Shown here: positions 1 through 9,500 of the stretch, piece after piece | How positions within the stretch are numbered: the stretch's first letter is position 1 | How the letters are laid out: each line of letters begins with the position of its first letter | Origin: a virus | Lineage: Duplodnaviria; Heunggongvirae; Uroviricota; Caudoviricetes | Virus record (IMG/VR): IMGVR_UViG_2547132272_000020 | Coordinates: 1 to 9,500 of that record | Direction: 5' to 3' (one strand) | DNA length: 9,500 nt | Made by a program: the position numbers and the translations under genes | The notes under the pieces: model-generated | Seen by the model: only the letters and a program-made list of their open reading frames with translations | Database searches by the model: none | Told to the model about the DNA's origin: nothing

Positions 1-738
1 AACACCACGGATTTTCAGTTCCCCGGTCATCAAATCACCAGATTTTTTTACATATCGCAGATCAAAATCTGAATAGATATTGCCGGGGTTTATCACGCTG
101 AAATAGCTTTTCTCGCTATCAAGAAGGCAAATCAAAGGAATACCCTTAATGATATCGTTCGCTACCAGCTCGGACTTGTTCCCCTTATAAAGCGGGAACG
201 TACCAAGAACCTTTCCGCCCAGTGTTAATTGAAGTGTCGCGGCATTGGTATTGTTCTGAACGGGGAAAACGATAATCGGGGTTCGTAGCGTCCAGTCTGT
301 ACCTCCATTAACAAAAAACGTCGCGGGAAGCTCCAGAGTCAGCGCGTTTGCAGTGCCGCCAGCAACTCCCGCAATATAATGACCACTCTGAAGCTGCGCT
401 ATCTGTACGAAATGGTTTTCCGAACCACGCGTGGCAAAGTTAGCCACAACGTCATTAAGGGACCAACCTTTCGCGGTTGTTCCTTCCTGCCCACGAATGA
501 CTTTCAACACATCACCGCTTACCGATACCAGGTGACAAATCTCAAATGCAGACTCTTTATTATCGGTAAGCGTAATTTTTGCATAGACACGTTGCCCGTT
601 CGATTTATTTTCAAAATCGGCAGAAAGCAATTTTGCAAATTTAGCCCCTGTACCGGGCATTACCGGAATATCAGTCTGAATCGTGGTGATATCACCAGCC
701 AGTGCTGAAACAACGTTATTGCCAAATCCAAGAATCAT
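1..738 (-). CDS. phage tail fiber protein, N-terminal part (partial; continues past window start)
   Basis: Minus-strand frame is open from the ATG at 738-736 through position 1; I checked all 246 codons and found no stop. The ATG overlaps the TGA of the upstream gene (ATGA). Translation starts MILGFGNNVVSALAGDITTIQTDIPVMPGTGAKFAKLL...KITLTDNKESAFEICHLVSVSGDVLKVIRGQEG... and contains ...SGDLMTGELKI..., which reads like the N-terminal region of enterobacterial myophage tail fibers. Position directly after the gp48/gpI-position gene fits. The family call is recollection, not a search. This ORF is absent from the supplied track because it runs off the window. Confidence 0.75.
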   Translation of the reverse strand, partial: MILGFGNNVVSALAGDITTIQTDIPVMPGTGAKFAKLLSADFENKSNGQRVYAKITLTDNKESAFEICHLVSVSGDVLKVIRGQEGTTAKGWSLNDVVANFATRGSENHFVQIAQLQSGHYIAGVAGGTANALTLELPATFFVNGGTDWTLRTPIIVFPVQNNTNAATLQLTLGGKVLGTFPLYKGNKSELVANDIIKGIPLICLLDSEKSYFSVINPGNIYSDFDLRYVKKSGDLMTGELKIRGV

Positions 739-1361
739 TTTTGAATCACCGTTGTTGCATAGGAATAAATAAAAGGGAGTTTTACATATTTCTGGTCAAT
801 GGCATCTTTCAGAAAATAGCCTATACCATCGCCATACTCTGGTATCTGAATAGAAAAAACGCTGTCCGATACTGTCACACTCACATCAAAAGTGTGCTGC
901 AACGGCGGGTCTATTCCGTTTTTTCCATGAATGAACCGCGCCACACGTCGCTTTAACCAGTCAATGCAGAAATGCGAACCGTCAGCCTTATAAAAATTCC
1001 ACGTTAATATTCGTTTGAAATAATCATCAGGTACATACGATGCCTGCCCCGGAACATAATTCCGCATTGCCGCATAAGGGATTGTATTGTATTCAATGGT
1101 ATCGTATGCGCCGCGTGCAATAGCCTCCTCGGAAACCTGTAGTAAAGGCCTTTCAACGCCATAAATCCCGAGTGCAATCCAGTCCAGCAATTGCCCGGTT
1201 ATTGATTCCGATGTCCAGCATGGCAATGCCAGATTGTTGAGTGAATCGAGGTATTCCTGAGCAATTTCATTGTATGCATCAAAGAACGCAACAACATTCG
1301 GATCATCTCTGTACTGCACAAATGGATAAGCAGGGAGAATTTTCTCAGTCAGATATTGCAT
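735..1361 (-). CDS. baseplate/tail protein in the Mu gp48 (DUF2313-type) or P2 gpI position
   Basis: The track gives 735..1469, but its first 36 codons lie inside the J-like gene. The ATG at 1361-1359 (MQYLTEKILPAYPFVQYRDDPNVVAFFDAYNEIAQEY...) is preceded by CAGGT about 8 nt upstream and overlaps the J-like stop by 17 nt. Its stop overlaps the tail-fiber ATG. Function is assigned mainly by synteny between baseplate J and tail fiber. Confidence 0.55.
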   Translation of the reverse strand: MQYLTEKILPAYPFVQYRDDPNVVAFFDAYNEIAQEYLDSLNNLALPCWTSESITGQLLDWIALGIYGVERPLLQVSEEAIARGAYDTIEYNTIPYAAMRNYVPGQASYVPDDYFKRILTWNFYKADGSHFCIDWLKRRVARFIHGKNGIDPPLQHTFDVSVTVSDSVFSIQIPEYGDGIGYFLKDAIDQKYVKLPFIYSYATTVIQK

Positions 1362-2571
1362 ACTTGTTGACCTGAACCTGTGATGCCACCGTTGAAAAAT
1401 AGGAATAGGTATCGCCATAAACCAGGCTTGTGTCTTTCGCCGGAAGAACAATATGGCCGTTAATACCAATGCTCACACTGATTGTTGAGATCAACGTCGC
1501 ATCAACCAGCAACCTGACGGAACTGGTAAAAATATCCTGGATACGCAGAAGATTTATCGGGTGTCCGACTTCAATTGAATTGATGTAATCAGCAACGTTT
1601 TGCTGCACAGCCATAGCAATACCCGCCGGATCAACATAATCATCAGACACCGTGTTCCAGGTGATTAGCACCATGACGTTTTGTGATGACGGGATAACGA
1701 ACGGCACCTGATAAACGTCCGGTGAAACGGTTATTGAAACCGTGCGTTTTTCCACTGCCGCACCGGATGGATTGCTAACATCGTTGGTCAGTTTCGAAAT
1801 ATCCGGTACAGATTTGTAAATCGCATAAGCCACATCATACGGATCACCGCCACCAACAACCGCAACCCATTTCCCCAGCGACGACTGCCGGAAAGAAATC
1901 AGGTTTTCTCGCACACCGCTTACTGATTTGAGCATCGCTTTAAAGCAATCCGGTGTTCCCTGCACACCAAACATGCCGGACTCCATAACTTCGGCGCGAT
2001 ATGATGCCCATGTCTGCGCCTCCTGACCGGGCATACCTGCGGTAAGGTTCGTGCATTTTACAGGCTGGTCTTTGGGTACTGATGTAATGACCTGCGTTAC
2101 AGTCCCTTCCGGTACAGCCCATGAGCCTGACGTTGTGGCCACACAGTAGACTGGCTCAGTCTGCCCGCTTTCCGGTACCACCGTATCGCGGGAAACCGCA
2201 TACTGGTAGTTACCATCTCCAACCACAAATCCTTTAGGGATACCAAACCCCGGCAACGCCTCAAACACCACGTATACCGCCGTATTTGTACTTAATCCCT
2301 TCTGTGCTCCATAAATGTTTCCGAGTTGCATCAGTAACGGAATATTTGCGCCGTATGGGCTTACGGAGTTAATAAGGTCCACCCGCGCCTGGTCTATTAA
2401 TGCCAGCGCCCCGACTGCCGTGCTGGCAAGGTCTGTAATAAGTCCCGCAGGAAGGTTGGCTGTATATCCAGGTACTTTTTCAGCAACTCTGGTGATAAGA
2501 TTTGCGAGCAAATCATTGGGTGGCGTAGGCTGCGCACCCGCACTGGTCATAGTAATTGGTATTTCTGACAT
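1345..2571 (-). CDS. baseplate J-like protein (Mu gp47 / P2 gpJ / T4 gp6 class)
   Basis: A 408-codon ORF (MSEIPITMTSAGAQPTPPNDLLANLITRVAEKVPGYTANLPAGLITDLASTAVGALALIDQARVDL...). Size and position (before the gp48-like and tail fiber genes) match the baseplate J family, and the N-terminal region resembles J-family proteins from memory. No recognisable Shine-Dalgarno precedes the ATG at 2571; the upstream sequence is AT-rich and is the antisense of the RBS of the divergent 158-aa gene. Confidence 0.7.
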   Translation of the reverse strand: MSEIPITMTSAGAQPTPPNDLLANLITRVAEKVPGYTANLPAGLITDLASTAVGALALIDQARVDLINSVSPYGANIPLLMQLGNIYGAQKGLSTNTAVYVVFEALPGFGIPKGFVVGDGNYQYAVSRDTVVPESGQTEPVYCVATTSGSWAVPEGTVTQVITSVPKDQPVKCTNLTAGMPGQEAQTWASYRAEVMESGMFGVQGTPDCFKAMLKSVSGVRENLISFRQSSLGKWVAVVGGGDPYDVAYAIYKSVPDISKLTNDVSNPSGAAVEKRTVSITVSPDVYQVPFVIPSSQNVMVLITWNTVSDDYVDPAGIAMAVQQNVADYINSIEVGHPINLLRIQDIFTSSVRLLVDATLISTISVSIGINGHIVLPAKDTSLVYGDTYSYFSTVASQVQVNKYAISD

Positions 2572-2608
2572 ATTTATTTATCACTTGAATACATTATAAG
2601 GAGATATA

Positions 2609-3085
2609 ATGCGGTTCTATTTCAACAAAAAAGGTCTTTCTGGTATTTCTGTATCAAGCGGAAGGAGTAGTGGTGGCTGTGGAACATTAATTGGAGTTGT
2701 CTTTATACTTTATTTAATTGGCCATTTTTCATCACCTTCCGATGAAGATATTAAAAATGAATCATCATCTTATAAGACAGCAGTCGTTAAAAGCGACAAA
2801 ATAATTTCCGAAATCTGCGATCAGTTTAGCACTGATGATTCCGCAAAAATATTTTTTAATTCAAATCTAAACAAACATTGGTATAAAACAAAAGTTAAAG
2901 TAAATTCACTATCAGATCAAAGATTATCTGCGATTGATTTCAAAAATCCAGAATTAAAGTATGAAATAAGAATGTCTGATTCAAGACCATTAAGAGTAGG
3001 GGATATTATTTCCGTTGAATTTGTACCTACTGAATTCAGTAAGTATTCATGCGAAATCAGTGGCACAATAGGTAAGTACAAGTAA
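2609..3085 (+). CDS. hypothetical membrane-anchored protein (AT-rich cargo gene); predicted basic N-terminus, one TM helix, ~115-aa C-terminal domain
   Basis: Strong RBS: AAGGAG ends about 7 nt before ATG 2609 (ttataaggagatataATG). The N-terminus MRFYFNKKGLSGISVSSGRSSGG is basic, followed by the hydrophobic stretch CGTLIGVVFILYLIGHF and then an acidic stretch SSPSDEDIKNESS. Stop TAA at 3083-3085 is followed immediately by a perfect hairpin terminator. Composition is markedly more A+T-rich than the tail genes. No family recognised. Confidence 0.65.
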   Translation: MRFYFNKKGLSGISVSSGRSSGGCGTLIGVVFILYLIGHFSSPSDEDIKNESSSYKTAVVKSDKIISEICDQFSTDDSAKIFFNSNLNKHWYKTKVKVNSLSDQRLSAIDFKNPELKYEIRMSDSRPLRVGDIISVEFVPTEFSKYSCEISGTIGKYK

Positions 3086-3090
3086 CCTCA

Positions 3091-3123
3091 AAAAAAACAG
3101 CCCGCTGAACGCGGGCTGTTTTT
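3091..3123. terminator. bidirectional intrinsic terminator between convergent cargo genes
   Basis: aaaaaaACAGCCCGCtgaacGCGGGCTGTttttt: a perfect 9-bp GC-rich stem (3097-3105 / 3111-3119) with a 5-nt loop, flanked by an A-run on one side and a T-run on the other, so each strand gets hairpin plus U-tract. It sits between the stop of the 158-aa gene (3085) and the stop of the minus-strand gene (3122-3124). Confidence 0.8.
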
Positions 3124-3511
3124 AATATACGCCACGAATAAGATCTTGGGTAAAAACATCACATCCTTCGCTACCTAATTGCAGTCTTTTCTTAAAGTAC
3201 TCAATAATACCGTCATTATGAACGCCATTTTTGGAAATTTTTAACCACGTATTGCTCCATTCTATACTTTGGAGTTTTGTTAAAGCCGCTTTTTCATTTC
3301 CTTCACTAACCAAGCGACACGATTCTGATAGTTGATCAGTTACAATCATTTCATTTCTCATATGCTGAAGCAATTGTCGCTGTTCTTCGCTTAAAGTAAC
3401 ATCTTGATTAGTAATGAGTCTTTCTGATTTTTCAATTGGCGTACCAATCGCACACCAAGAGACGAATAAAATTGTAAATAAAGGGAGTGTAATTTTTATA
3501 CTGACCGACAT
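3122..3511 (-). CDS. hypothetical secreted/periplasmic protein with N-terminal signal peptide (AT-rich cargo gene)
   Basis: The track gives 3122..3517 starting at a GTG. The ATG two codons downstream (3511-3509) is preceded by GAGGTG and gives MSVSIKITLPLFTILFVSWCAIG|TPIEKSERL...: short polar n-region with Lys, hydrophobic core, small residues before a likely signal peptidase I site. It is not a lipobox (no [GAS]-C). The mature part has two Cys. Composition is AT-rich. No family recognised. Confidence 0.6.
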   Translation of the reverse strand: MSVSIKITLPLFTILFVSWCAIGTPIEKSERLITNQDVTLSEEQRQLLQHMRNEMIVTDQLSESCRLVSEGNEKAALTKLQSIEWSNTWLKISKNGVHNDGIIEYFKKRLQLGSEGCDVFTQDLIRGVY

Positions 3512-3517
3512 AATCAC

Positions 3518-3830
3518 CTCATTATCAAATGTTCATGCGGATTTTATCAACGGTTTCCCTCTATTCAAATCAGACTTTACATCCATGAGCTATTGAGTAT
3601 GATTATGCGCATGAGGCGTCGAAACCTCTTTCACGCGGCCTAGACCAACCCCGTCAGTGTTGGATTTTTTATGCCTACAATTCAGTGATGGCACAATGTG
3701 CGGTCACATCCCCGATCAATGTCGGGAGGGCGACGAATACAACACCCGAAAGGGAAATAAGTCCGCGGTTTCGTGAAGCCGTTTCGAACCTCCTGGCACC
3801 ACAATTTCGAAAAAATTTCACGAGGTTTCT
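3518..3830. promoter_or_regulatory. divergent control region and long leader upstream of the antirepressor gene, with repeated motif and a hairpin plus T6
   Basis: Three copies of a motif TCGAAA(C)-N3-4-TTCACG: 3618-3635 (direct), 3772-3789 (inverted) and 3805-3822 (direct, abutting the GAGG Shine-Dalgarno of the antirepressor gene). Hairpin CCAAC-N8-GTTGG followed by ATTTTTT at 3646-3670. Candidate plus-strand sigma70 promoter TTTACA (3576-3581), 16-bp spacer, TATGAT (3598-3603). Direct repeats TTATCAA / TTATCAA / TATTCAAAT at 3522-3571. All sites are read by eye. Confidence 0.35.
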
Positions 3831-4388
3831 ATGACCAGCCAATTAATTCCCGTATTCAACGGCATTGTTTCAAACGAAACTACCCTTCTCTGCAACGCTC
3901 GCGATCTGCACACCTTTCTCGAAGTAGGTAAACGCTTTGCTACTTGGATCACCGAGCGAATCGGCGAGTATGAATTCATAGAAAATCAGGACTACATAGC
4001 TATTTCCCAAAAACGGGAAATAGGTCACGGACGAGGGAAAAAGGACTACCACCTCACCCTGGACACCGCCAAAGAACTGGCAATGGTCGAGCGCAACGAA
4101 AAAGGCCGCCAGATCCGCCGATACTTCATCGAGTGCGAGAAGAAGCTGCGCGAGGATACCACCAGCACACAATCCCCTCTGAATGTTGACATCATCATGC
4201 GCGTCAGAAACGGCTCGGTTACCCACATTGAGCACCACAAATCAGGCTCAGTTATAACCACAGAATGGGCAATTCACTTACTACGCAAAAGTGGATGGAT
4301 TGTCATGCCACGCGATGAACTTCTTAACACGCCACTGGCCCAACTGATGCCCGAAAATTTGACTCAAACCGGAACCTGCGTCCGGTAA
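3831..4388 (+). CDS. AntA/AntB-family phage antirepressor-like protein (185 aa)
   Basis: GAGG lies 5 nt before ATG 3831. The translation MTSQLIPVFNGIVSNETTLLCNARDLHTFLEVGKRFATWITERIGEYEFIENQDYIAISQ...KDYHLTLDTAKELAMVERNEKGRQIRRYFIECEKKLRE matches my recollection of the AntA N-terminal domain signature (LH.FLEVG..F..WI..RI..Y.F.E..D... YHLTLD.AKELAMVERNEKG...R.YFIECE) found in enterobacterial prophage antirepressors. Orientation is opposite to the tail genes. The 3' end overlaps the 3' end of the convergent gp25-like gene by 25 nt (4364-4388). Confidence 0.8.
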   Translation: MTSQLIPVFNGIVSNETTLLCNARDLHTFLEVGKRFATWITERIGEYEFIENQDYIAISQKREIGHGRGKKDYHLTLDTAKELAMVERNEKGRQIRRYFIECEKKLREDTTSTQSPLNVDIIMRVRNGSVTHIEHHKSGSVITTEWAIHLLRKSGWIVMPRDELLNTPLAQLMPENLTQTGTCVR

Positions 4389-4711
4389 CTGGTCCCATTA
4401 AAAAACACAACATCGATGTTATAGGTGGGGTTCTCTGCCCCATCTACCTTTGAAATTGCCAGCGATGCAAAATACCCGGCAAACTGTTGCTGAACCATGT
4501 TCACATAGTAGTCCGGGTAAATTTGCTGCACGATGCACTGCTGCGCTGGAATGCCGTAATTCGCGTAAAACGGCGACTCCCCCAACCCCAGCTTTAACGT
4601 CTGAATGAGCGTCGTCAGCCAGCCGTAGGAGAAATCACCGCTGGCGTCAGATTCTACAGCAACCCATTTTTTGTTGCCGTTCGCGTCGGTGACGCGGCCC
4701 CATGTTCTCAT
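4364..4711 (-). CDS. putative baseplate wedge protein, gp25 / P2 gpW / Mu gp46 class (115 aa)
   Basis: AAGG lies about 7 nt before ATG 4711. Size (115 aa) and position between the spike and baseplate J genes fit gp25-like proteins. The segment GLGESPFYANYGIP has the same G-E-(6 residues)-Y-G-x-P spacing as the signature I recall from gpW/TssE-type proteins (for example ...GSRVMRRDYGS... in P2 gpW). This is recollection and needs a profile search. Confidence 0.5.
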   Translation of the reverse strand: MRTWGRVTDANGNKKWVAVESDASGDFSYGWLTTLIQTLKLGLGESPFYANYGIPAQQCIVQQIYPDYYVNMVQQQFAGYFASLAISKVDGAENPTYNIDVVFFNGTSYRTQVPV

Positions 4712-4714
4712 GCG

Positions 4715-4879
4715 TCAACCTTTCAAGTAAATTAGGGTACCGGTAGCCAGAGCGGTACAAATGATCCACGCTACTGGAGTCAGAATATGCCGAATACCCT
4801 GACATACTGCGATTATTCTCGCAGCCTTATCAGCTCCTTGTGGGGTTGTCTCAGCCTTAAGAATCAGTTCGCTATCCAT
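4715..4879 (-). CDS. small hypothetical membrane peptide B (54 aa), translationally coupled to the downstream gp25-like gene
   Basis: Not in the track (below size cutoff). ATG 4879-4877 is preceded by AAAGG 6 nt upstream. Translation MDSELILKAETTPQGADKAARIIAVCQGIRHILTPVAWIICTALATGTLIYLKG: polar N-half and a ~21-residue hydrophobic C-terminal segment. Its TGA stop (4717-4715) lies 3 nt before the ATG of the 115-aa gene. Its start overlaps the stop of ORF A by 8 nt. Confidence 0.4.
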   Translation of the reverse strand: MDSELILKAETTPQGADKAARIIAVCQGIRHILTPVAWIICTALATGTLIYLKG

Positions 4880-5039
4880 TTAGAACCTTTATGATCTCTG
4901 CGATTCCCGGAAGCGATTTAGCAACTGCAAACCCTCCGATAACTATAAGAACTGCATAAAACATTCTTCTCAGAACCGGACTTCTTTCGAGCAATTTTAG
5001 AGCTTCCACAATCCAGTCTCCTCCGCTAAAATTAATCAC
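4872..5039 (-). CDS. small hypothetical membrane peptide A (55 aa from GTG; 30 aa if started at the internal ATG 4964)
   Basis: Not in the track. GTG 5039-5037 is preceded by GGAGG with a 6-nt spacer (TTGGAGGTCTTCCGTG). Translation (M)INFSGGDWIVEALKLLERSPVLRRMFYAVLIVIGGFAVAKSLPGIAEIIKVLNG, with a hydrophobic C-terminal segment. Stop TAG is at 4874-4872. Start codon choice is uncertain. Confidence 0.35.
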   Translation of the reverse strand: MINFSGGDWIVEALKLLERSPVLRRMFYAVLIVIGGFAVAKSLPGIAEIIKVLNG

Positions 5040-5084
5040 GGAAGACCTCCAAACATACGTAATTATCCCTTGCCTTATTCAAGG

Positions 5085-5126
5085 TCAGAAACAGAAAGCC
5101 CCGACTGTTTGCCCAGTCGGGGCTTT
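5085..5126 (-). terminator. intrinsic terminator downstream of the spike gene (hairpin is symmetric enough to act on both strands)
   Basis: AAAGCCCCGACTG tttgcc CAGTCGGGGCTTT: perfect 13-bp stem (5095-5107 / 5114-5126) with a 6-nt loop. On the minus strand it is followed by UUUCUGUUUCUG (5094-5085). It lies 39 nt after the spike stop (5165). Confidence 0.7.
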
Positions 5127-5164
5127 CGCTTTATGGATAGAATTTAAAGTGAAATGAACCGGTA

Positions 5165-5878
5165 TTAACCCGGATTTGGTTTCTTTGACGTGATCGTGCT
5201 GTTGCCGCTTTGAACCCCAGTCACATCGTGGCTGTGACCGCTGGCGCTGACACCTTTTATCATCGCGTCGTTTTGCACAGTAAGCGGGCCAATCAGCGAA
5301 GCGGTTGTATCCTTCATCTGGGCTTTGTCCTGGACGATCGGTCCGTTGAGGTGAATTTTCCCGTTCAGGAAAATATCTTCGGCCTCGAGGTAAACAGCTT
5401 TCGACTTTTGCCTGATTTCTTCCGGTGCCACCGTTACCGAGCTACTGCCGTCCTCTGTTTTGAGGATCGCGCCATCCGGACCGTACAAAACGATCTTTTG
5501 CGGATCTTCGTCGGACCAGTCCTTGTTTGCCAGTGGCACGAAAAACAGTGGAGTGAGCGACATCGAGTAAGAGAGCGTCGCCATACCGGTTCCCAATCCG
5601 GACACACCGCGCAGGGATACATCAGCGGCAATTGTTACTCCTCGATCGCCCGGCTGTATCGGGTAACGAATATACGGGAATGTGGCGACAGGGATTGTTA
5701 TCTGCGGAAAGTTGATCCCCTCCGGCAGCATATCAAACTGAACTGTCACTATCTGCCCGCTGACACCGACAACATGGCAGGGCAATTCACGACCTTTAAG
5801 CTCGGCTTGCTGGTTACCAGAACTGGTCATCATCTCCGACAGCGTTCGGAGAAACGGTAATTTTTGAGCGTTTGACAT
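5165..5878 (-). CDS. baseplate spike protein (P2 gpV / Mu gp45 class), 237 aa
   Basis: ATG 5878-5876 overlaps the TAA of the upstream gene (TAATG). Position follows the hub-like gene. The C-terminal region ...MIKGVSASGHSHDVTGVQSGNSTITSKKPNPG carries an H-x-H motif (5228-5236) near the end, as expected for metal-binding apexes of gp5/gpV/gp45-type spikes. Family is assigned by order, size and this motif. Confidence 0.65.
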   Translation of the reverse strand: MSNAQKLPFLRTLSEMMTSSGNQQAELKGRELPCHVVGVSGQIVTVQFDMLPEGINFPQITIPVATFPYIRYPIQPGDRGVTIAADVSLRGVSGLGTGMATLSYSMSLTPLFFVPLANKDWSDEDPQKIVLYGPDGAILKTEDGSSSVTVAPEEIRQKSKAVYLEAEDIFLNGKIHLNGPIVQDKAQMKDTTASLIGPLTVQNDAMIKGVSASGHSHDVTGVQSGNSTITSKKPNPG

Positions 5879-6885
5879 TACACCCTCGCCCAGTTCTCAG
5901 CATATGCCTCAAATACCGTCACCCAGGCATCGCCATCGGCTGTCAGATACGAACCAATGTGTCTGACCGATTTCACAAGAAATTTCCCGGTGAACGTGGT
6001 CGAATTTTTTGCGATAACGCTGGGTGCCGTTGTATTAGCCATCACAATCGACGCAGCACCTGAATATAGCCCCTCCGGCAGTTTAACCACATCACCACAT
6101 CTGATATCGCCCCTCATAGGGCATTTGAAGCTGACGGTAAACGGCGCTATCCATGTCGGCTGCCCGACCAGTTCATGGGCATGAATTGTTTTTGGCTCAC
6201 CCCACTTTGCCGATGCGTTATCGTAGATTCGTATTCTGTCGGAAAGAATACTGATGGCGATTCCGCTGTATTTCTCATCGCGCATCATTGCAATTGAAGC
6301 ACTACGGAGGACCATAGCCAGCGAACCAATATCTTCGTAGGTTCCATTCCACGGTTCCGGCAAAACGAGGCTGTCGCTGACAGTACAATCGATCAACTTA
6401 TTCGGAAATGCCTTTTGCAACGCACGGGAGATTACATCACCAACCTTTTCCCCTTTAAGCCCCTCCCCCTCGATAGAGAACGGTTTACCATCATCTGTTT
6501 TGCGTACGGTTGGATTTATTACCAGGTTTAAGGTCTGGTTCGTGCCGATCCAGTTGGCATAGGCCAGATAAATTTCGCCATAAATAACCTCACCCTGTTG
6601 CTGTGGATTTGCCAAAGGCAATCCCTCAACAAAGCCCGCTTTCATACGGACCAGACACCCCTGCAAACTCACGCTTTGCTTCAGCATGTCGATAGGCAAA
6701 CCGTATATTGTGAGCATCGTTCCTGAATTCACTACATCAAGACCCGCTACCTCCACATCAAATTCAACATGTAGCCCACACCCGGGGGTTTTACTGGTAT
6801 CAAAAGGCCCGATAGGTTTACCGTTGCAATCCACTGGCGGCTTGCCTGTTTTAGGATTGATGATTTCCAGTCGGTAATAGCGCAT
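5878..6885 (-). CDS. putative baseplate hub protein (Mu gp44 / P2 gpD position), 335 aa
   Basis: The ATG at 6885-6883 overlaps the upstream TAA (TAATG), and its own TAA overlaps the spike ATG. Assignment is by synteny (immediately upstream of the spike gene) and size; I recognise no motif with confidence. Confidence 0.5.
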   Translation of the reverse strand: MRYYRLEIINPKTGKPPVDCNGKPIGPFDTSKTPGCGLHVEFDVEVAGLDVVNSGTMLTIYGLPIDMLKQSVSLQGCLVRMKAGFVEGLPLANPQQQGEVIYGEIYLAYANWIGTNQTLNLVINPTVRKTDDGKPFSIEGEGLKGEKVGDVISRALQKAFPNKLIDCTVSDSLVLPEPWNGTYEDIGSLAMVLRSASIAMMRDEKYSGIAISILSDRIRIYDNASAKWGEPKTIHAHELVGQPTWIAPFTVSFKCPMRGDIRCGDVVKLPEGLYSGAASIVMANTTAPSVIAKNSTTFTGKFLVKSVRHIGSYLTADGDAWVTVFEAYAENWARV

Positions 6886-7151
6886 TACGAAACCTCAAAC
6901 TGATTAGAACTTTCACGAAAAACGAGTTTCCCCGGCGAGCAAGGCAGCGCCAGATTGATGTCGTAATTGTCAGGTGACGCGATCAACGGTGTGTACACAA
7001 TCACGTCGCCAGAACTGTCTTTCAGTTCCAGATAGTAACGATTTGCATACAGATTAAACGGAACGCGGGCGAATGTTTCATATTTTCCGATTCTGGCCGT
7101 GAACTGAAACGGACCTCGCCCGTCCGGTTTGAAAGGAATTAACGTTGTCAT
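6885..7151 (-). CDS. small tail-module protein of unknown function (88 aa)
   Basis: ATG 7151-7149 overlaps the TGA of the upstream gene (ATGA). The stop overlaps the start of the hub-like gene. Compact coupling within the structural operon supports a real gene; function unassigned. Confidence 0.45.
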   Translation of the reverse strand: MTTLIPFKPDGRGPFQFTARIGKYETFARVPFNLYANRYYLELKDSSGDVIVYTPLIASPDNYDINLALPCSPGKLVFRESSNQFEVS

Positions 7152-7816
7152 AAGCCAATACCAAACTCCTGCACGACCTGGTTCTTAATACCTGACCACG
7201 ATAGCGGACCGTCTGACGGCATCCCTTTATCAAATTTATCCAGAACGCTCGCCAGCGTCTTTACTGTTTGTTCGACAGATGACAATGGTTGCTCAAATTC
7301 AATCTGCCAGGTGTGCTGCACTTGCTTGTTCTGCTCAGAGAAACCGGATGTATCGATAAACGACCGCATCAGGCAACGCGTATAGATAAACGACGGAGTC
7401 AGAACGGTGTAACAACCGCCATACTGGTTATGCATATCAAGCGCCATTTTCAGCGCCGTGAACGTCATTCCCTTCGTGGTGTAGCCACCGTCCTCCGTTG
7501 ATGCCGGACGGATCATCTGCATGACTACCCGGTTAGGCTTCCTGACGGTCGCATTCGCTGCCGTTACCTGGTTATAGAAATTCAGGTTGCAGATATCCTG
7601 CTGGACCAGCGTTGTCCCGGCCATTGGCGTGAATGCCGCCATCGAGCGTGTACGAATCTCTCCATGCAGCAGACCGTTCGCGATGCTTAGTCCTTCGGTC
7701 AGAACAGCAATCGGCATCACCCCGCCAGGAATTTTCGACGCTATGCCATCAACTAAAAGAATGGGCGAAACTTCAAACGCCAGTTTGAAAGCTTGTCCAA
7801 AGTAATTAAGTGACAT
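7148..7816 (-). CDS. tail-module protein following the tape measure (Mu gp43/N position), 222 aa
   Basis: ATG 7816-7814 lies 3 nt after the tape-measure TAA, with a G-rich stretch (GGGG) upstream. Part of a chain of four translationally coupled genes. Function is by position only. Confidence 0.5.
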   Translation of the reverse strand: MSLNYFGQAFKLAFEVSPILLVDGIASKIPGGVMPIAVLTEGLSIANGLLHGEIRTRSMAAFTPMAGTTLVQQDICNLNFYNQVTAANATVRKPNRVVMQMIRPASTEDGGYTTKGMTFTALKMALDMHNQYGGCYTVLTPSFIYTRCLMRSFIDTSGFSEQNKQVQHTWQIEFEQPLSSVEQTVKTLASVLDKFDKGMPSDGPLSWSGIKNQVVQEFGIGL

Positions 7817-7819
7817 CTT

Positions 7820-9500
7820 TTACCCCGGTATTTGTTGCGTTCCGGCGAGTTGTGCCAGTATGTCGGAACCCGGCGATTGTCGCACCTGAAGCTCAATTAT
7901 TGCGCGGGCATTTTTGCCAGCACCCTGAAGATTATCTCTGGCATTTCTTAGCTGATTCATAATACCAGGGTGTTGATCCAGGGCTCCCTGAATCTGAGGC
8001 AATAATTTAATTAAATATTTTACAGTCTCCATTCTCAAACTTAGATTTCCATCTCTATCAATACGACCTCCGTTATATGCCGTAAGCATTTTTGCCACAT
8101 CGCCTTTATAACGCCGATTCAGATCATTTAAAAAGCGGCCAGCCGCAAGAGTGGATTTATTTGGGTCATAAACATCATCACCCACCAGACCATACTGTTT
8201 TGCGGTGCTATCCCAGAATTGCCACAACCCCTTAGCGAATCTACCTTTTTCATCAGGAGTTCCTCTTGCCAGAGGATTCCACGAAGATTCAACTTCTGCG
8301 ATAGCTGACATCATATTTTTAGGAAGTCGATAAGTATTATTGGCTTGCTCTACAAAGTTCTGAATATTTCTCTTTAAATCATTAGGCATACGGTAATTTT
8401 TATATACATCATCCTGTTTATAAAACTCACCCGTATACTGATTTGTCATCGGGTTTGCTCCCGGCAACGCACCACCGAGATATTTATTTCCAAATGCCGC
8501 AAGAACTGGATCTGCCTGTTCAGCACCAACTCCGGTTCCGGGGAGATATTTATCTTCCCCACCGATCCATTTGATAGCTGACCATATTGCTTTTGCAATC
8601 CGGCTCACCGCCAGAGAAAAATCGTCAAGATCATTTTTAAATTGTTCGCTATTCAGCCACTTACCAAGTTTCTCCAGCCCTTCGCCAGCCTCAGCGAGAA
8701 TTTTCTGAAAATTTCCACCATTCAGAAAACCTTCAATATTGGATGTCAGCCCATCAGATGCACCTGTGATTAGTGGGTTATATCTGGCGAGAGCTGCATA
8801 CCAGGAATTTGATATTCTGTTTCCATTTACCATCAGGTTACTCACCGTATCCTGATAACCTGACTGCATAGCTGGCGTGAGGTAAGCACCGAGCAACCTA
8901 GTATTTGATGCAAATTTCTCGTTCAGTTGGGGGATCTTGTCCAGATTCGCTTCCACCTGGTTAGTTGTCGCGACATCAACAAATCCAAGCCCTTGTCCGT
9001 TGAGAATCCCCTGAGTAAGTCCTGAACCTTTATATTGCTTAACGAGAGATGCAAGCGCGCTCATAAGTTTGGGCAGATTCTTTGCTGCACCATCTCGAGG
9101 ATCAATTCCAAGACTGACCAGACCAGCATAGTTTGGATCATTTGGATTTTTCTGTGCGTTCGCCAGATGCTGAACCAGTTCTTCTGTGCCAGAAAAATAT
9201 GGCGAATAGGTGGCACGTGCGGCCTGCATCTGTGCGGTTTCCATACCCAGCCCCTGAGCCACGCTGTATTGCGCTGCAACCTTGCTCGCCATATATCCGT
9301 ACCCGAAAGCACCGACCGAACCAAGCGCCGCAATTTTGCTCCCCCAGGATACAGTCGTTTTAAACAGCGTTTTCAGTCGTGAATTGGTCGTTTTAAGCGT
9401 TGAATTGATCTGCTTGTAAGTTTTCAGCGTCCCCTGAGCGTTTTTACCCAGACTACTGAGATACTTATCAAATGAACCGCCCCGGGTTTCCTGGAGAGTG
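7820..9500 (-). CDS. tail tape measure protein, C-terminal part with lytic-transglycosylase (SLT)-like domain (partial; continues past window end)
   Basis: The track starts at ATG 9292, but the same frame is open upstream through 9499 (69 further codons, no stop: ...GKNAQGTLKTYKQINSTLKTTNSRLKTLFKTT...), so the gene is truncated by the window. Residues ~320-420 of the track ORF (about 8033-8335) contain ...MMSAIAEVESSWNPLARGTPDEKGRFAKGLWQF..., matching the family-1 lytic transglycosylase active-site signature (catalytic Glu in E-S, codon 8290-8288). The position before the baseplate genes and the low-complexity Ala/Gln/Gly-rich flanks fit a tape measure. Confidence 0.8.
   Translation of the reverse strand, partial: TLQETRGGSFDKYLSSLGKNAQGTLKTYKQINSTLKTTNSRLKTLFKTTVSWGSKIAALGSVGAFGYGYMASKVAAQYSVAQGLGMETAQMQAARATYSPYFSGTEELVQHLANAQKNPNDPNYAGLVSLGIDPRDGAAKNLPKLMSALASLVKQYKGSGLTQGILNGQGLGFVDVATTNQVEANLDKIPQLNEKFASNTRLLGAYLTPAMQSGYQDTVSNLMVNGNRISNSWYAALARYNPLITGASDGLTSNIEGFLNGGNFQKILAEAGEGLEKLGKWLNSEQFKNDLDDFSLAVSRIAKAIWSAIKWIGGEDKYLPGTGVGAEQADPVLAAFGNKYLGGALPGANPMTNQYTGEFYKQDDVYKNYRMPNDLKRNIQNFVEQANNTYRLPKNMMSAIAEVESSWNPLARGTPDEKGRFAKGLWQFWDSTAKQYGLVGDDVYDPNKSTLAAGRFLNDLNRRYKGDVAKMLTAYNGGRIDRDGNLSLRMETVKYLIKLLPQIQGALDQHPGIMNQLRNARDNLQGAGKNARAIIELQVRQSPGSDILAQLAGTQQIPG

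Follow-up and report, generated by a model that had tools for sequence, protein, structure and literature searches.

A probable immunity cassette of the P1 c4 type, built on an sRNA-Xcc1-family RNA, in the leader of a Caudoviricetes antirepressor gene

The leader of an antirepressor gene was analysed in a 9,500-nucleotide (nt) stretch of Caudoviricetes DNA (IMG/VR record IMGVR_UViG_2547132272_000020, positions 1 to 9,500), referred to below as the window. This leader is probably a self-contained immunity cassette of the kind known from the immI (c4) locus of phage P1, built here on an RNA of the sRNA-Xcc1 family, in which an antisense RNA blocks translation of the antirepressor gene (ant). Three elements are present, an RNA which is a member of that family and one complementary site on either side of it, and in relatives the complementarity is kept by covariation with the same geometry. 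The downstream partner lies at the ribosome binding site of antirepressor genes, while the upstream partner is followed by a hairpin and a T-run. The complementary partners are under selection to remain complementary.

The sRNA-Xcc1-type RNA and its flanking target sites

sRNA-Xcc1 was the sole Rfam family matched above threshold in a scan of the whole window (69.7 bits for a gathering score of 53, E = 2.1e-11), and the match spans the full RF02221 model (positions 1–87 of 87). The RNA is closed by a 9-bp stem, P1 (3721–3729/3789–3797). Two elements extend from it: P2, a long arm that contains AAUACAA and is capped by a GAAA tetraloop, and P3, a short hairpin (3765–3769/3778–3782); a single-stranded junction then leads into the 3' strand of P1, and the tail after P1 reads ACCA (3798–3801). 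The conserved arm AAUACAAnACCCGnAAGGGRAAU is present exactly, as is the NCC tail of the family; in 117 of 144 modules, CC occurs within 3 nt after P1. RefSeq carries no annotation at the position of the sRNA-Xcc1-type RNA. The part of the molecule that varies within the family is the antisense determinant. It consists of the P3 loop UUCGUGAA (3770–3777, containing CGUGAA), designated b' by analogy with c4, and of the junction UUUCGAA (3782–3788), designated a', with GCCG(U) between them forming the 3' strand of P3.

A preliminary description, made from the sequence alone, had noted a bipartite motif occurring twice in direct and once in inverted orientation. A search for the pattern TCGAAAN{4,5}TTCACG bears this out, with exactly three matches in the 9.5-kb window against 0.01 expected, a number reached by none of 200 dinucleotide-preserving shuffles. 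The copies themselves are thus as described, although the 18-nt spans assigned to them include one or two flanking bases and their spacer length is not uniform (Table 1). The third copy was also correctly placed: its last base is G3822, with which the Shine-Dalgarno (SD) sequence GAGG begins, and the ATG is at 3831. Placed on the consensus structure, the two halves of the inverted copy are predicted to be the two exposed single-stranded segments of the RNA, and the direct copies are their complements.

At the upstream site, GAGG (3613–3616) and CCUC (3625–3628) form a 4-bp hairpin presenting a1, UCGAAA (3619–3624), in its loop; b1, UUCACG, follows at 3630–3635 and is succeeded by a conserved CGG (3636–3638), a triplet which always follows b1. 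Enclosure of a1 by a helix of at least 4 bp was found at 86/100 loci, compared to 16/100 control positions, with 24 distinct closing stems, and across the family the site lies about 50–110 nt 5' of P1. The downstream site comprises a2 (UUCGAAA, 3806–3812) and b2 (UUCACG, 3817–3822). Its complementarity to the RNA amounts to 7 bp plus 6–8 bp, with a duplex energy of −17.6 kcal/mol, and the pairing with b' can be extended by a U-A and a U.G pair into A3823 and G3824 of the SD sequence.

Table 1 Features of the leader and adjoining region (window coordinates)
Feature	Position	Strand	Basis or detail
Candidate divergent promoter TTGAAT-16-TAAAAT, TG before −10	3541–3568	−	Consensus match only
Second promoter-like site, candidate for divergent gene	3550–3521	−	Consensus match
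Candidate sigma-70 promoter of leader, TTTACA-16-TATGAT	3576–3603	+	10/12 consensus positions
Upstream target site (a1/b1 analogue)	3613–3638	+	Sequence; covariation with RNA loop and junction
Motif copy 1	3619–3635	+	N5 spacer CCTCT
Terminator-like hairpin, 9-nt loop CCCGUCAGU, then A + U6	3645–3670	+	Conservation; covariation
Spacer hairpin between terminator and RNA, GUGAUGGCAC..GUGCGGUCAC	3685–3707	+	RNAalifold, 13 relatives
sRNA-Xcc1-family RNA (c4 analogue), three-way junction	3721–3805	+	Rfam RF02221
Antisense determinant (inverted motif copy)	3770–3788	+	Position in consensus structure line
Motif copy 2 (inverted; + strand CGTGAA-GCCG-TTTCGA)	3772–3787	−	N4 spacer
Downstream target site (a2/b2 analogue)	3806–3824	+	Sequence; duplex energy
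Motif copy 3	3807–3822	+	N4 spacer AAAT
SD GAGG (3822–3825), ATG (3831) and antirepressor gene (to 4388, 185 aa)	3822–4388	+	AntA/AntB domain

Two further hairpins lie between the upstream site and the RNA. The first pairs CCAAC (3645–3649) with GTTGG (3659–3663) and is followed by T6 (3665–3670). A leader hairpin with a T tract had been pointed out in the preliminary description, and it is indeed present and conserved, starting at 3645, one base before the 3646 given there. It was not called by an intrinsic-terminator scan, because its loop is 9 nt long, and single-sequence folding gives no significant stability for the hairpin or for the short leader. It is, however, unchanged in three close homologues, and a hairpin with a T-rich tail follows b1 at 93/100 loci, with 46 distinct stems. 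Since it is conserved and covarying in relatives, it is regarded as a conserved part of the module although it is weak in the window. Its loop (3650–3658) carries a conserved CCCGUCAG / CCCGAUAG motif, for which locus L124 (3277–3312) is likewise listed; this motif and the CGG after b1 may form a CGG:CCG tertiary pair, or may be a site for a protein or an RNase. The second hairpin, in the spacer, shows compensatory changes at alignment columns 102–109 / 117–124 and may help precursor processing. From this RNAalifold analysis of a 13-sequence leader alignment, only helices with compensatory changes were used, as it also joins distant invariant segments in pairings that are implausible, for instance the 3' strand of the terminator with the Xcc1 core.

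Covariation of the RNA and its target sites

In a three-way alignment of the window with the E. coli phage Rac-SA53 and with phiSTEC801-Stx1a, the scaffold of the RNA is nearly invariant, while the loop varies and both flanking sites follow it. The P3 loop CGUGAA of the window is matched by TTCACG at both sites, and CUUGUA of Rac-SA53 by TACAAG at both; for CUUUUGG of phiSTEC801, the upstream site is CCAAAAG and the downstream site CCAAAGG, with one G.U pair. The junction behaves similarly, the change from UUUCGAA to UUUCGAG in phiSTEC801 being matched by a change from TCGAAA to CTCGAAA at both sites. The homologous RNAs score 78.1 bits (Rac-SA53) and 74.5 and 65.4 bits (the two copies of phiSTEC801-Stx1a) with RF02221, and each of them precedes an Ant gene. 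All five junction:a1 pairs are maintained in 13/13 close relatives, among which there are four double compensatory changes and no broken pair. It had been anticipated that the motif copies would be conserved in homologous regions if they are functional; their positions are indeed kept, and their sequences covary with the loop and junction of the RNA.

For a broader test, a viral set was assembled by scanning IMG/VR for the invariant core AATACAANACCCGNAAGGGRAAT and parsing P1, P3 and the junction heuristically for each match. The longest exact complement of the loop was then sought, independently of register, in the flanks of its own locus (110 nt in the case of the downstream region) and compared with that of the loops of other loci over 10,000 permutations, loop and junction being used alone. 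With 74 distinct viral loops, the cognate complement averages 6.3 nt downstream, against 4.5 nt for non-cognate loops (z = 18.4), and no permutation of the 10,000 approaches the observed value; upstream, the corresponding lengths are 6.6 and 4.9 nt (z = 16.3). An independent set from bacterial genomes (70 loops) gives z = 17.0 downstream and 20.6 upstream, as well as z = 11.5 and 14.6 for the junction. Mismatches internal to the helices are more often of the G.U than of the A.C type (34 vs 14, p = 0.006), which argues for pairing at the RNA level on the + strand rather than for repeated DNA sites; at helix ends there is no such bias (98 vs 96).

Two other measures of pairing were set aside. 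RNAduplex energies of the whole P3 and junction against the flanks separated cognate from non-cognate combinations weakly, because the GC-rich stem strands dominate, and were replaced by the longest-complement test. A fixed-register pairing table for the 13 relatives, anchored on the CGG, the P3 strand and the SD sequence, failed since the paired register shifts by 1–2 nt among loci; its values (cognate 0.69 vs 0.56 at site 1, 0.42 vs 0.34 at site 2) were not used.

Geometry of the sites and diversity of the downstream genes

The downstream site always has the layout reverse complement of the junction, N3-5, reverse complement of the loop, and runs into the SD sequence, the loop target ending 7–11 nt 5' of the start codon at 56/67 loci. 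The genes that follow belong to unrelated protein families, nearly all of them with antirepressor domains: KilA-N (14), P22_AR_C (13), Rha (10), AntA (10), Bro-N (9), P22_AR_N (8) and ORF6N (6) in the viral set, and Bro-N (13), Rha (8) and others in the genome set, in which two SymE toxins also occur. The conserved unit is the RNA cassette and not the downstream protein. In bacterial genomes, the upstream site is conserved at 93% of loci and the downstream site at 69%. Because it is the better conserved of the two, and the sole site in the integron-type copies of Xanthomonas, the upstream site may be the more fundamental partner.

These integron-type copies (6 Xanthomonas loci; Rhodanobacter, Lysobacter) have an upstream site that covaries with the RNA and lies roughly 73 nt 5' of it, and no downstream site was found in them; the RNA is followed by a GC-rich hairpin and then by an SD sequence and a small open reading frame (ORF), which encodes a SymE toxin in two cases. 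As they lack the downstream site, the original member of the family may work differently from the phage copies. A subclass of nine viral contigs with the loop GCATGCGG and the junction CAUCGGA is located upstream of ORFs of about 85 aa, and no complement of either loop or junction was found in either flank of these nine contigs.

Two tandem Xcc1-type modules are present in phiSTEC801-Stx1a (1068–1157 and 1610–1695) and in another viral contig (L063). Each precedes its own Ant gene and has its own matching sites, with CUUUGAAGG / AGUUGA in one module and CUUUUGG / UUUCGAG in the other, so that by their sequences they look like orthogonal locks within one phage. Conversely, viral contig L022 (5435–5687) carries the exact loop CGUGAA, the junction UUUCGAA and both sites of the window in front of a different downstream ORF, and therefore joins the same RNA specificity to different cargo.

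Comparison with known regulatory systems

That c4-type RNAs control antirepressors by an antisense mechanism has been known since 1990. In P1, repression of ant by c4 operates via translational coupling to a leader ORF, icd, and via transcriptional polarity, and the c4 precursor is reportedly a substrate of RNase P, a finding attributed to Hartmann et al. in 1995. In GenBank, P1 immI is annotated with the promoters P2c4 and P1c4, a1/b1, c4 (77 nt), a2, b2, icd and ant1/2, all on the same strand; a1/b1 precede c4 by 67–88 nt, a2 follows it at a distance of 4 nt, and 10 nt separate the end of b2 from the ATG of icd. The immI regions of P1 and P7 resemble the window in the succession of a promoter, a1/b1, a hairpin with a U-run, a three-way-junction RNA, a2/b2 at a ribosome binding site and an antirepressor gene, with similar spacings, and in that the antisense RNA is encoded in the leader on the same strand as ant; in the window, both are on the + strand with one promoter candidate upstream. 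The Rfam consensus of C4 has the same topology as sRNA-Xcc1, with b' in the last hairpin loop, a' in the 3' junction, and the stem followed by ACC. P1 and the window further share the CGG after b1, and a terminator loop containing CCGAUA occurs in P1 as well as in many Xcc1-type leaders. The scaffolds differ: P2 of the window is long, with AAUACAA and the GAAA tetraloop, and its closing stem P1 is shorter. The half-sites are spaced by 4–5 nt in the window compared to 22 nt for a2/b2 in P1, the window lacks an icd-like leader ORF, site 2 being at the SD sequence of ant itself, and no C1-type operator was identified at the window promoter. C4 and c4-a1b1 share the Rfam clan CL00128, whereas sRNA-Xcc1 belongs to none. 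Homologues of c4 are widespread (PMC2864571), and the heteroimmunity of P1 and P7 rests on few loop nucleotides (PMC12197685).

When P1 immI was searched with Rfam, C4 (RF01695), c4-a1b1 (RF03163) and isrK (RF01394) were all found, the isrK match (35 bits, below threshold) covering a1/b1 and the following hairpin and U-run, i.e. the analogue of window positions 3613–3670. In the Salmonella prophage Gifsy-1, as is proposed for the window, a short RNA (IsrK/STnc1160) ends at a leaky terminator with a read-through mRNA beyond it (PMC4825925). This mRNA contains a processed stable RNA complementary to IsrK and controls the antirepressor-like anrP (PMC4825925). IsrK, however, activates translation of the leader ORF orf45 in trans, while the window has neither a leader ORF nor an isrK match. 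The CI RNA of P4 is similar to the RNA proposed for the window in being processed and in pairing with sites both upstream and downstream of it on the same transcript, seqA and seqC (PMC4825925), although the outcome there is premature transcription termination of the replication operon and not occlusion of an antirepressor ribosome binding site. In P22 immI, an antirepressor is likewise under control, and the sar antisense RNA blocks translation of ant (PMC12197685); sar is, however, transcribed from the opposite strand across the ribosome binding site of ant, and the protein repressors Mnt and Arc act there at DNA operators, neither of which applies to the window.

sRNA-Xcc1 has been an Rfam family since about 2012. 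The RNA was first described in Xanthomonas campestris, and the window matches it in sequence and structure above the curated threshold. It was detected in Xanthomonas as a discrete 88-nt RNA by Northern blot and rapid amplification of cDNA ends (PMC2996969), there is RNA-seq evidence of it in Xylella, and in APSE phages it is, as in the window, found upstream of an antirepressor-type gene (ORF6N). The literature presents it as a trans-acting RNA under control of HrpG/HrpX with predicted host or plant targets, and as part of an integron cassette upstream of symE, or else only names it beside phage genes. In the searchable literature on sRNA-Xcc1, no flanking self-targets, link to c4 or control of antirepressors are described; where both c4 and sRNA-Xcc1 are named, they are treated as unrelated, and sRNA-Xcc1 is absent from a 2025 review of phage sRNAs (PMC12197685). 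The c4-type mechanism is already known, and its assignment to sRNA-Xcc1 appears to be unreported in the searchable literature. What the window would add is the logic of c4 on an sRNA-Xcc1 scaffold acting directly at the SD sequence of ant, and the link may already have been made elsewhere.

Proposed mechanism and alternative explanations

According to the c4-type model, the promoter near 3576–3603 would start one transcript containing all elements in the order target site 1, weak terminator-like hairpin with U6, three-way-junction RNA of 77–85 nt, target site 2 abutting or overlapping the SD sequence, and antirepressor gene. Two short single-stranded segments of the RNA would be exposed, b' in the P3 loop and a' in the 3' junction, and taken together they form the reverse complement of each target site. 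By analogy with c4, the RNA would be excised from read-through transcripts. Its 5' end is likely cut by RNase P in the manner of a tRNA, because P1 with ACCA mimics a tRNA acceptor end as in c4; the 9-bp closing stem and ACCA are the substrate features visible in the window. Acting in trans, the RNA would pair with 3806–3824 and block binding of the 30S subunit, and hence translation of ant. This would keep the prophage repressor safe, and would provide sequence-specific immunity against incoming phages that have an identical loop. At site 1, pairing could either tune termination and read-through at 3645–3670, an autoregulation like that of P4 CI with seqA, or the short terminated transcript could be a decoy or activator which titrates or counteracts the RNA, like IsrK in Gifsy-1. 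By analogy with c4, we infer that the RNA represses the antirepressor in trans and sets the specificity of immunity.

Several observations weigh against this model. When the whole leader is folded, the minimum-free-energy structure lacks the Xcc1 fold and has site 1 paired with the SD region instead, which makes intramolecular alternatives plausible; site 2 begins only 9 nt after P1, so that pairing in cis is possible. The Rfam models C4, c4-a1b1 and isrK have no match in the window at E <= 1, and an icd-like coupling ORF is absent from the leader. The terminator-like hairpin is thermodynamically weak when taken alone (−4.7 kcal/mol, z = −1.0). Duplex energy alone is non-specific: 396–435 and 4671–4705 in the window equal the real sites, which they do only through nucleotides paired in P3, and duplex energy was accordingly rejected as a target predictor. 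Finally, about 20–30% of the family, including the Xanthomonas integron type and the nine-member GCATGCGG subclass, have no recognisable downstream complement, and blocking of the ribosome binding site is thus not universal to the family.

One alternative is a purely cis-acting switch without any trans-acting RNA. The unprocessed leader would toggle between the Xcc1 fold, which leaves the SD sequence accessible, and structures in which either site 2 or site 1 is paired with the loop and junction, the SD sequence being blocked in the case of site 2. An RNA switch was one of two options put forward in the preliminary description, and its components, i.e. pairing at the RNA level, occlusion of the SD sequence and an attenuator hairpin, come close to the evidence. 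In favour of such a switch, the three elements occupy a 210-nt span of a single transcript, the full leader has long-range pairs involving site 1 and the SD region in its minimum-free-energy fold, RNAalifold also pairs site 1 with the junction in cis, and in Gifsy-1 pairing of the IsrK segment in cis silences the read-through mRNA (PMC4825925). On the other hand, the RNA ends in a tRNA-like stem with ACCA, a feature shared across the family, the family is known from Xanthomonas to accumulate as a discrete RNA of about 88 nt, an 18-nt loop containing one strand of P1 would be required if a' were to pair with a2 in cis, and the high diversity of loops, together with two orthogonal modules in one phage, is what heteroimmunity conferred by a trans-acting RNA predicts. 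Since the inverted copy corresponds to the loop and junction of sRNA-Xcc1 and the layout is that of P1 immI, a processed, trans-acting antisense RNA explains the data better than the purely intramolecular form, which we consider unlikely; cis and trans modes are not mutually exclusive and may coexist. We find it distinctly improbable that the RNA acts on unlinked host or phage targets and that the flanking sites serve only folding, processing or stability of the precursor. That would agree with the treatment of sRNA-Xcc1 in the literature as a trans-acting, virulence-linked RNA with predicted host targets in Xanthomonas and Xylella, with the wider conservation of the upstream site in genomes, and with the integron-type copies having the upstream site only; it is at odds with the precise position of the downstream site at the SD sequence, 7–11 nt from the start codon, with the strong restriction of the downstream genes to antirepressors and toxins, and with the hypervariability of the loop, which does not suit conserved host targets.

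The other option of the preliminary description, DNA operators for a dedicated repressor protein following the Mnt/Arc logic, is not supported and is given a very low probability. A bipartite 6+6 motif that is present twice in direct and once in inverted orientation, close to a promoter and a ribosome binding site, could suggest operators, and P22 immI is a precedent for protein control of ant. Unlike what is known from P22, however, no copy overlaps the promoter hexamers (3576–3603), and no regulator or repressor gene travels with the module, the neighbours being baseplate genes and hypothetical proteins. In addition, the inverted copy is inside a conserved RNA structure with its halves in unpaired segments, complementarity covaries in more than 140 distinct modules, the spacers (N4/N5 in the window) range from N3 to N17 in relatives, and G.U-type mismatches are tolerated over A.C ones. 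Recurrence of a short motif by chance is a negligible prospect: each half is only 6 nt long and TTCGAA is palindromic and of low complexity, but the shuffled sequences never gave three matches and the covariation is found in two independent collections.

Implications for the sRNA-Xcc1 family

A wider claim, to which we give an even chance, is that the whole sRNA-Xcc1 family is a second widespread scaffold of "self-targeting" immunity RNAs of the c4/CI type, with private loop-and-junction codes matched in their own leaders, and with the upstream site and leaky terminator as the core. If so, sRNA-Xcc1-type RNAs would guard antirepressors of at least six unrelated families, as well as SymE toxins, in Proteobacteria, phages and integron cassettes; the upstream site, the best conserved partner and one that is kept where the ribosome binding site lacks its complement, would with the leaky terminator serve as an autoregulatory attenuator or a decoy; and the diversity of loops would define many orthogonal immunity groups. 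Antirepressors decide whether prophages remain silent, including the Stx-converting phages that carry the same module before antB. An RNA family lacking an agreed function would gain a concrete, testable mechanism, in which the flanking sites directly read out the target code of each RNA. From such a code, one could predict which prophages are cross-immune, for instance in the case of the window (CGUGAA) and Rac-SA53 (CUUGUA), and with more than 140 orthogonal pairs of short RNA and target, the modules would offer a natural library on which synthetic translational control could draw. The reports on sRNA-Xcc1 in virulence or as vesicle cargo in Xanthomonas and Xylella would then call for a revised reading.

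Promoters and genomic setting

The promoter candidate of the leader had already been singled out in the preliminary description, and its match to the consensus was retrieved, its function being predicted from that match; the transcription start is predicted near 3610–3612. The aligned position is occupied by TTGACT-18-TACAAT in Rac-SA53 and by TTGACG-18-TATACT in phiSTEC801. As had also been supposed, the region appears to hold a divergent promoter, two promoter-like sites being found on the − strand. The candidate at 3568–3541 is back to back with the + strand promoter and would serve the − strand gene 3122–3512/3517. For this gene, ATG 3512 with the SD sequence GAGGTG (3520–3515) is a likelier start than the GTG at 3517 given by the ORF finder, which is an unlikely start because it falls within the SD sequence.

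The product of the ORF at 3831–4388 contains an AntA/AntB antirepressor domain (Pfam PF08346, 1.8e-27), and its homologue in Rac-SA53 bears the annotation "ant". The window is 95.6% identical to Rac-SA53 across 85% of its length. The leader and ant precede antB/ant in many Stx-converting phages too (77–87% identity), the homology beginning at about 3612, directly 5' of motif copy 1, while in other E. coli prophages, where the module is near-identical, it begins at about 3573, directly 5' of the promoter. The cassette of promoter, RNA and ant (within 3100–4400) is oriented opposite to the surrounding baseplate and tail genes on the − strand. Its flanks are about 95% identical to Rac-SA53, while for the cassette itself the identity to Rac-SA53 drops to 85% and that to other E. 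coli prophages is 97.7%, and judging from these comparisons it seems to behave like an inserted moron.

The Actinobacillus phage vB_Apl-pPE4 (PP818812.1) is 94.5% identical to the window over 67% of its length; it is labelled a phage of Actinobacillus pleuropneumoniae, yet resembles the window of E. coli-phage type. Its ant gene lacks the RNA leader, and no Rfam match was obtained at that place. Within the window itself, sub-threshold Rfam matches lie at 5063–5186 on the + strand, in a gap between − strand ORFs; they are to the rimP leader and, with weak statistics (24 bits for a gathering score of 43, E = 0.33), to the sar RNA (RF00262), by which P22 exerts antisense control of ant.

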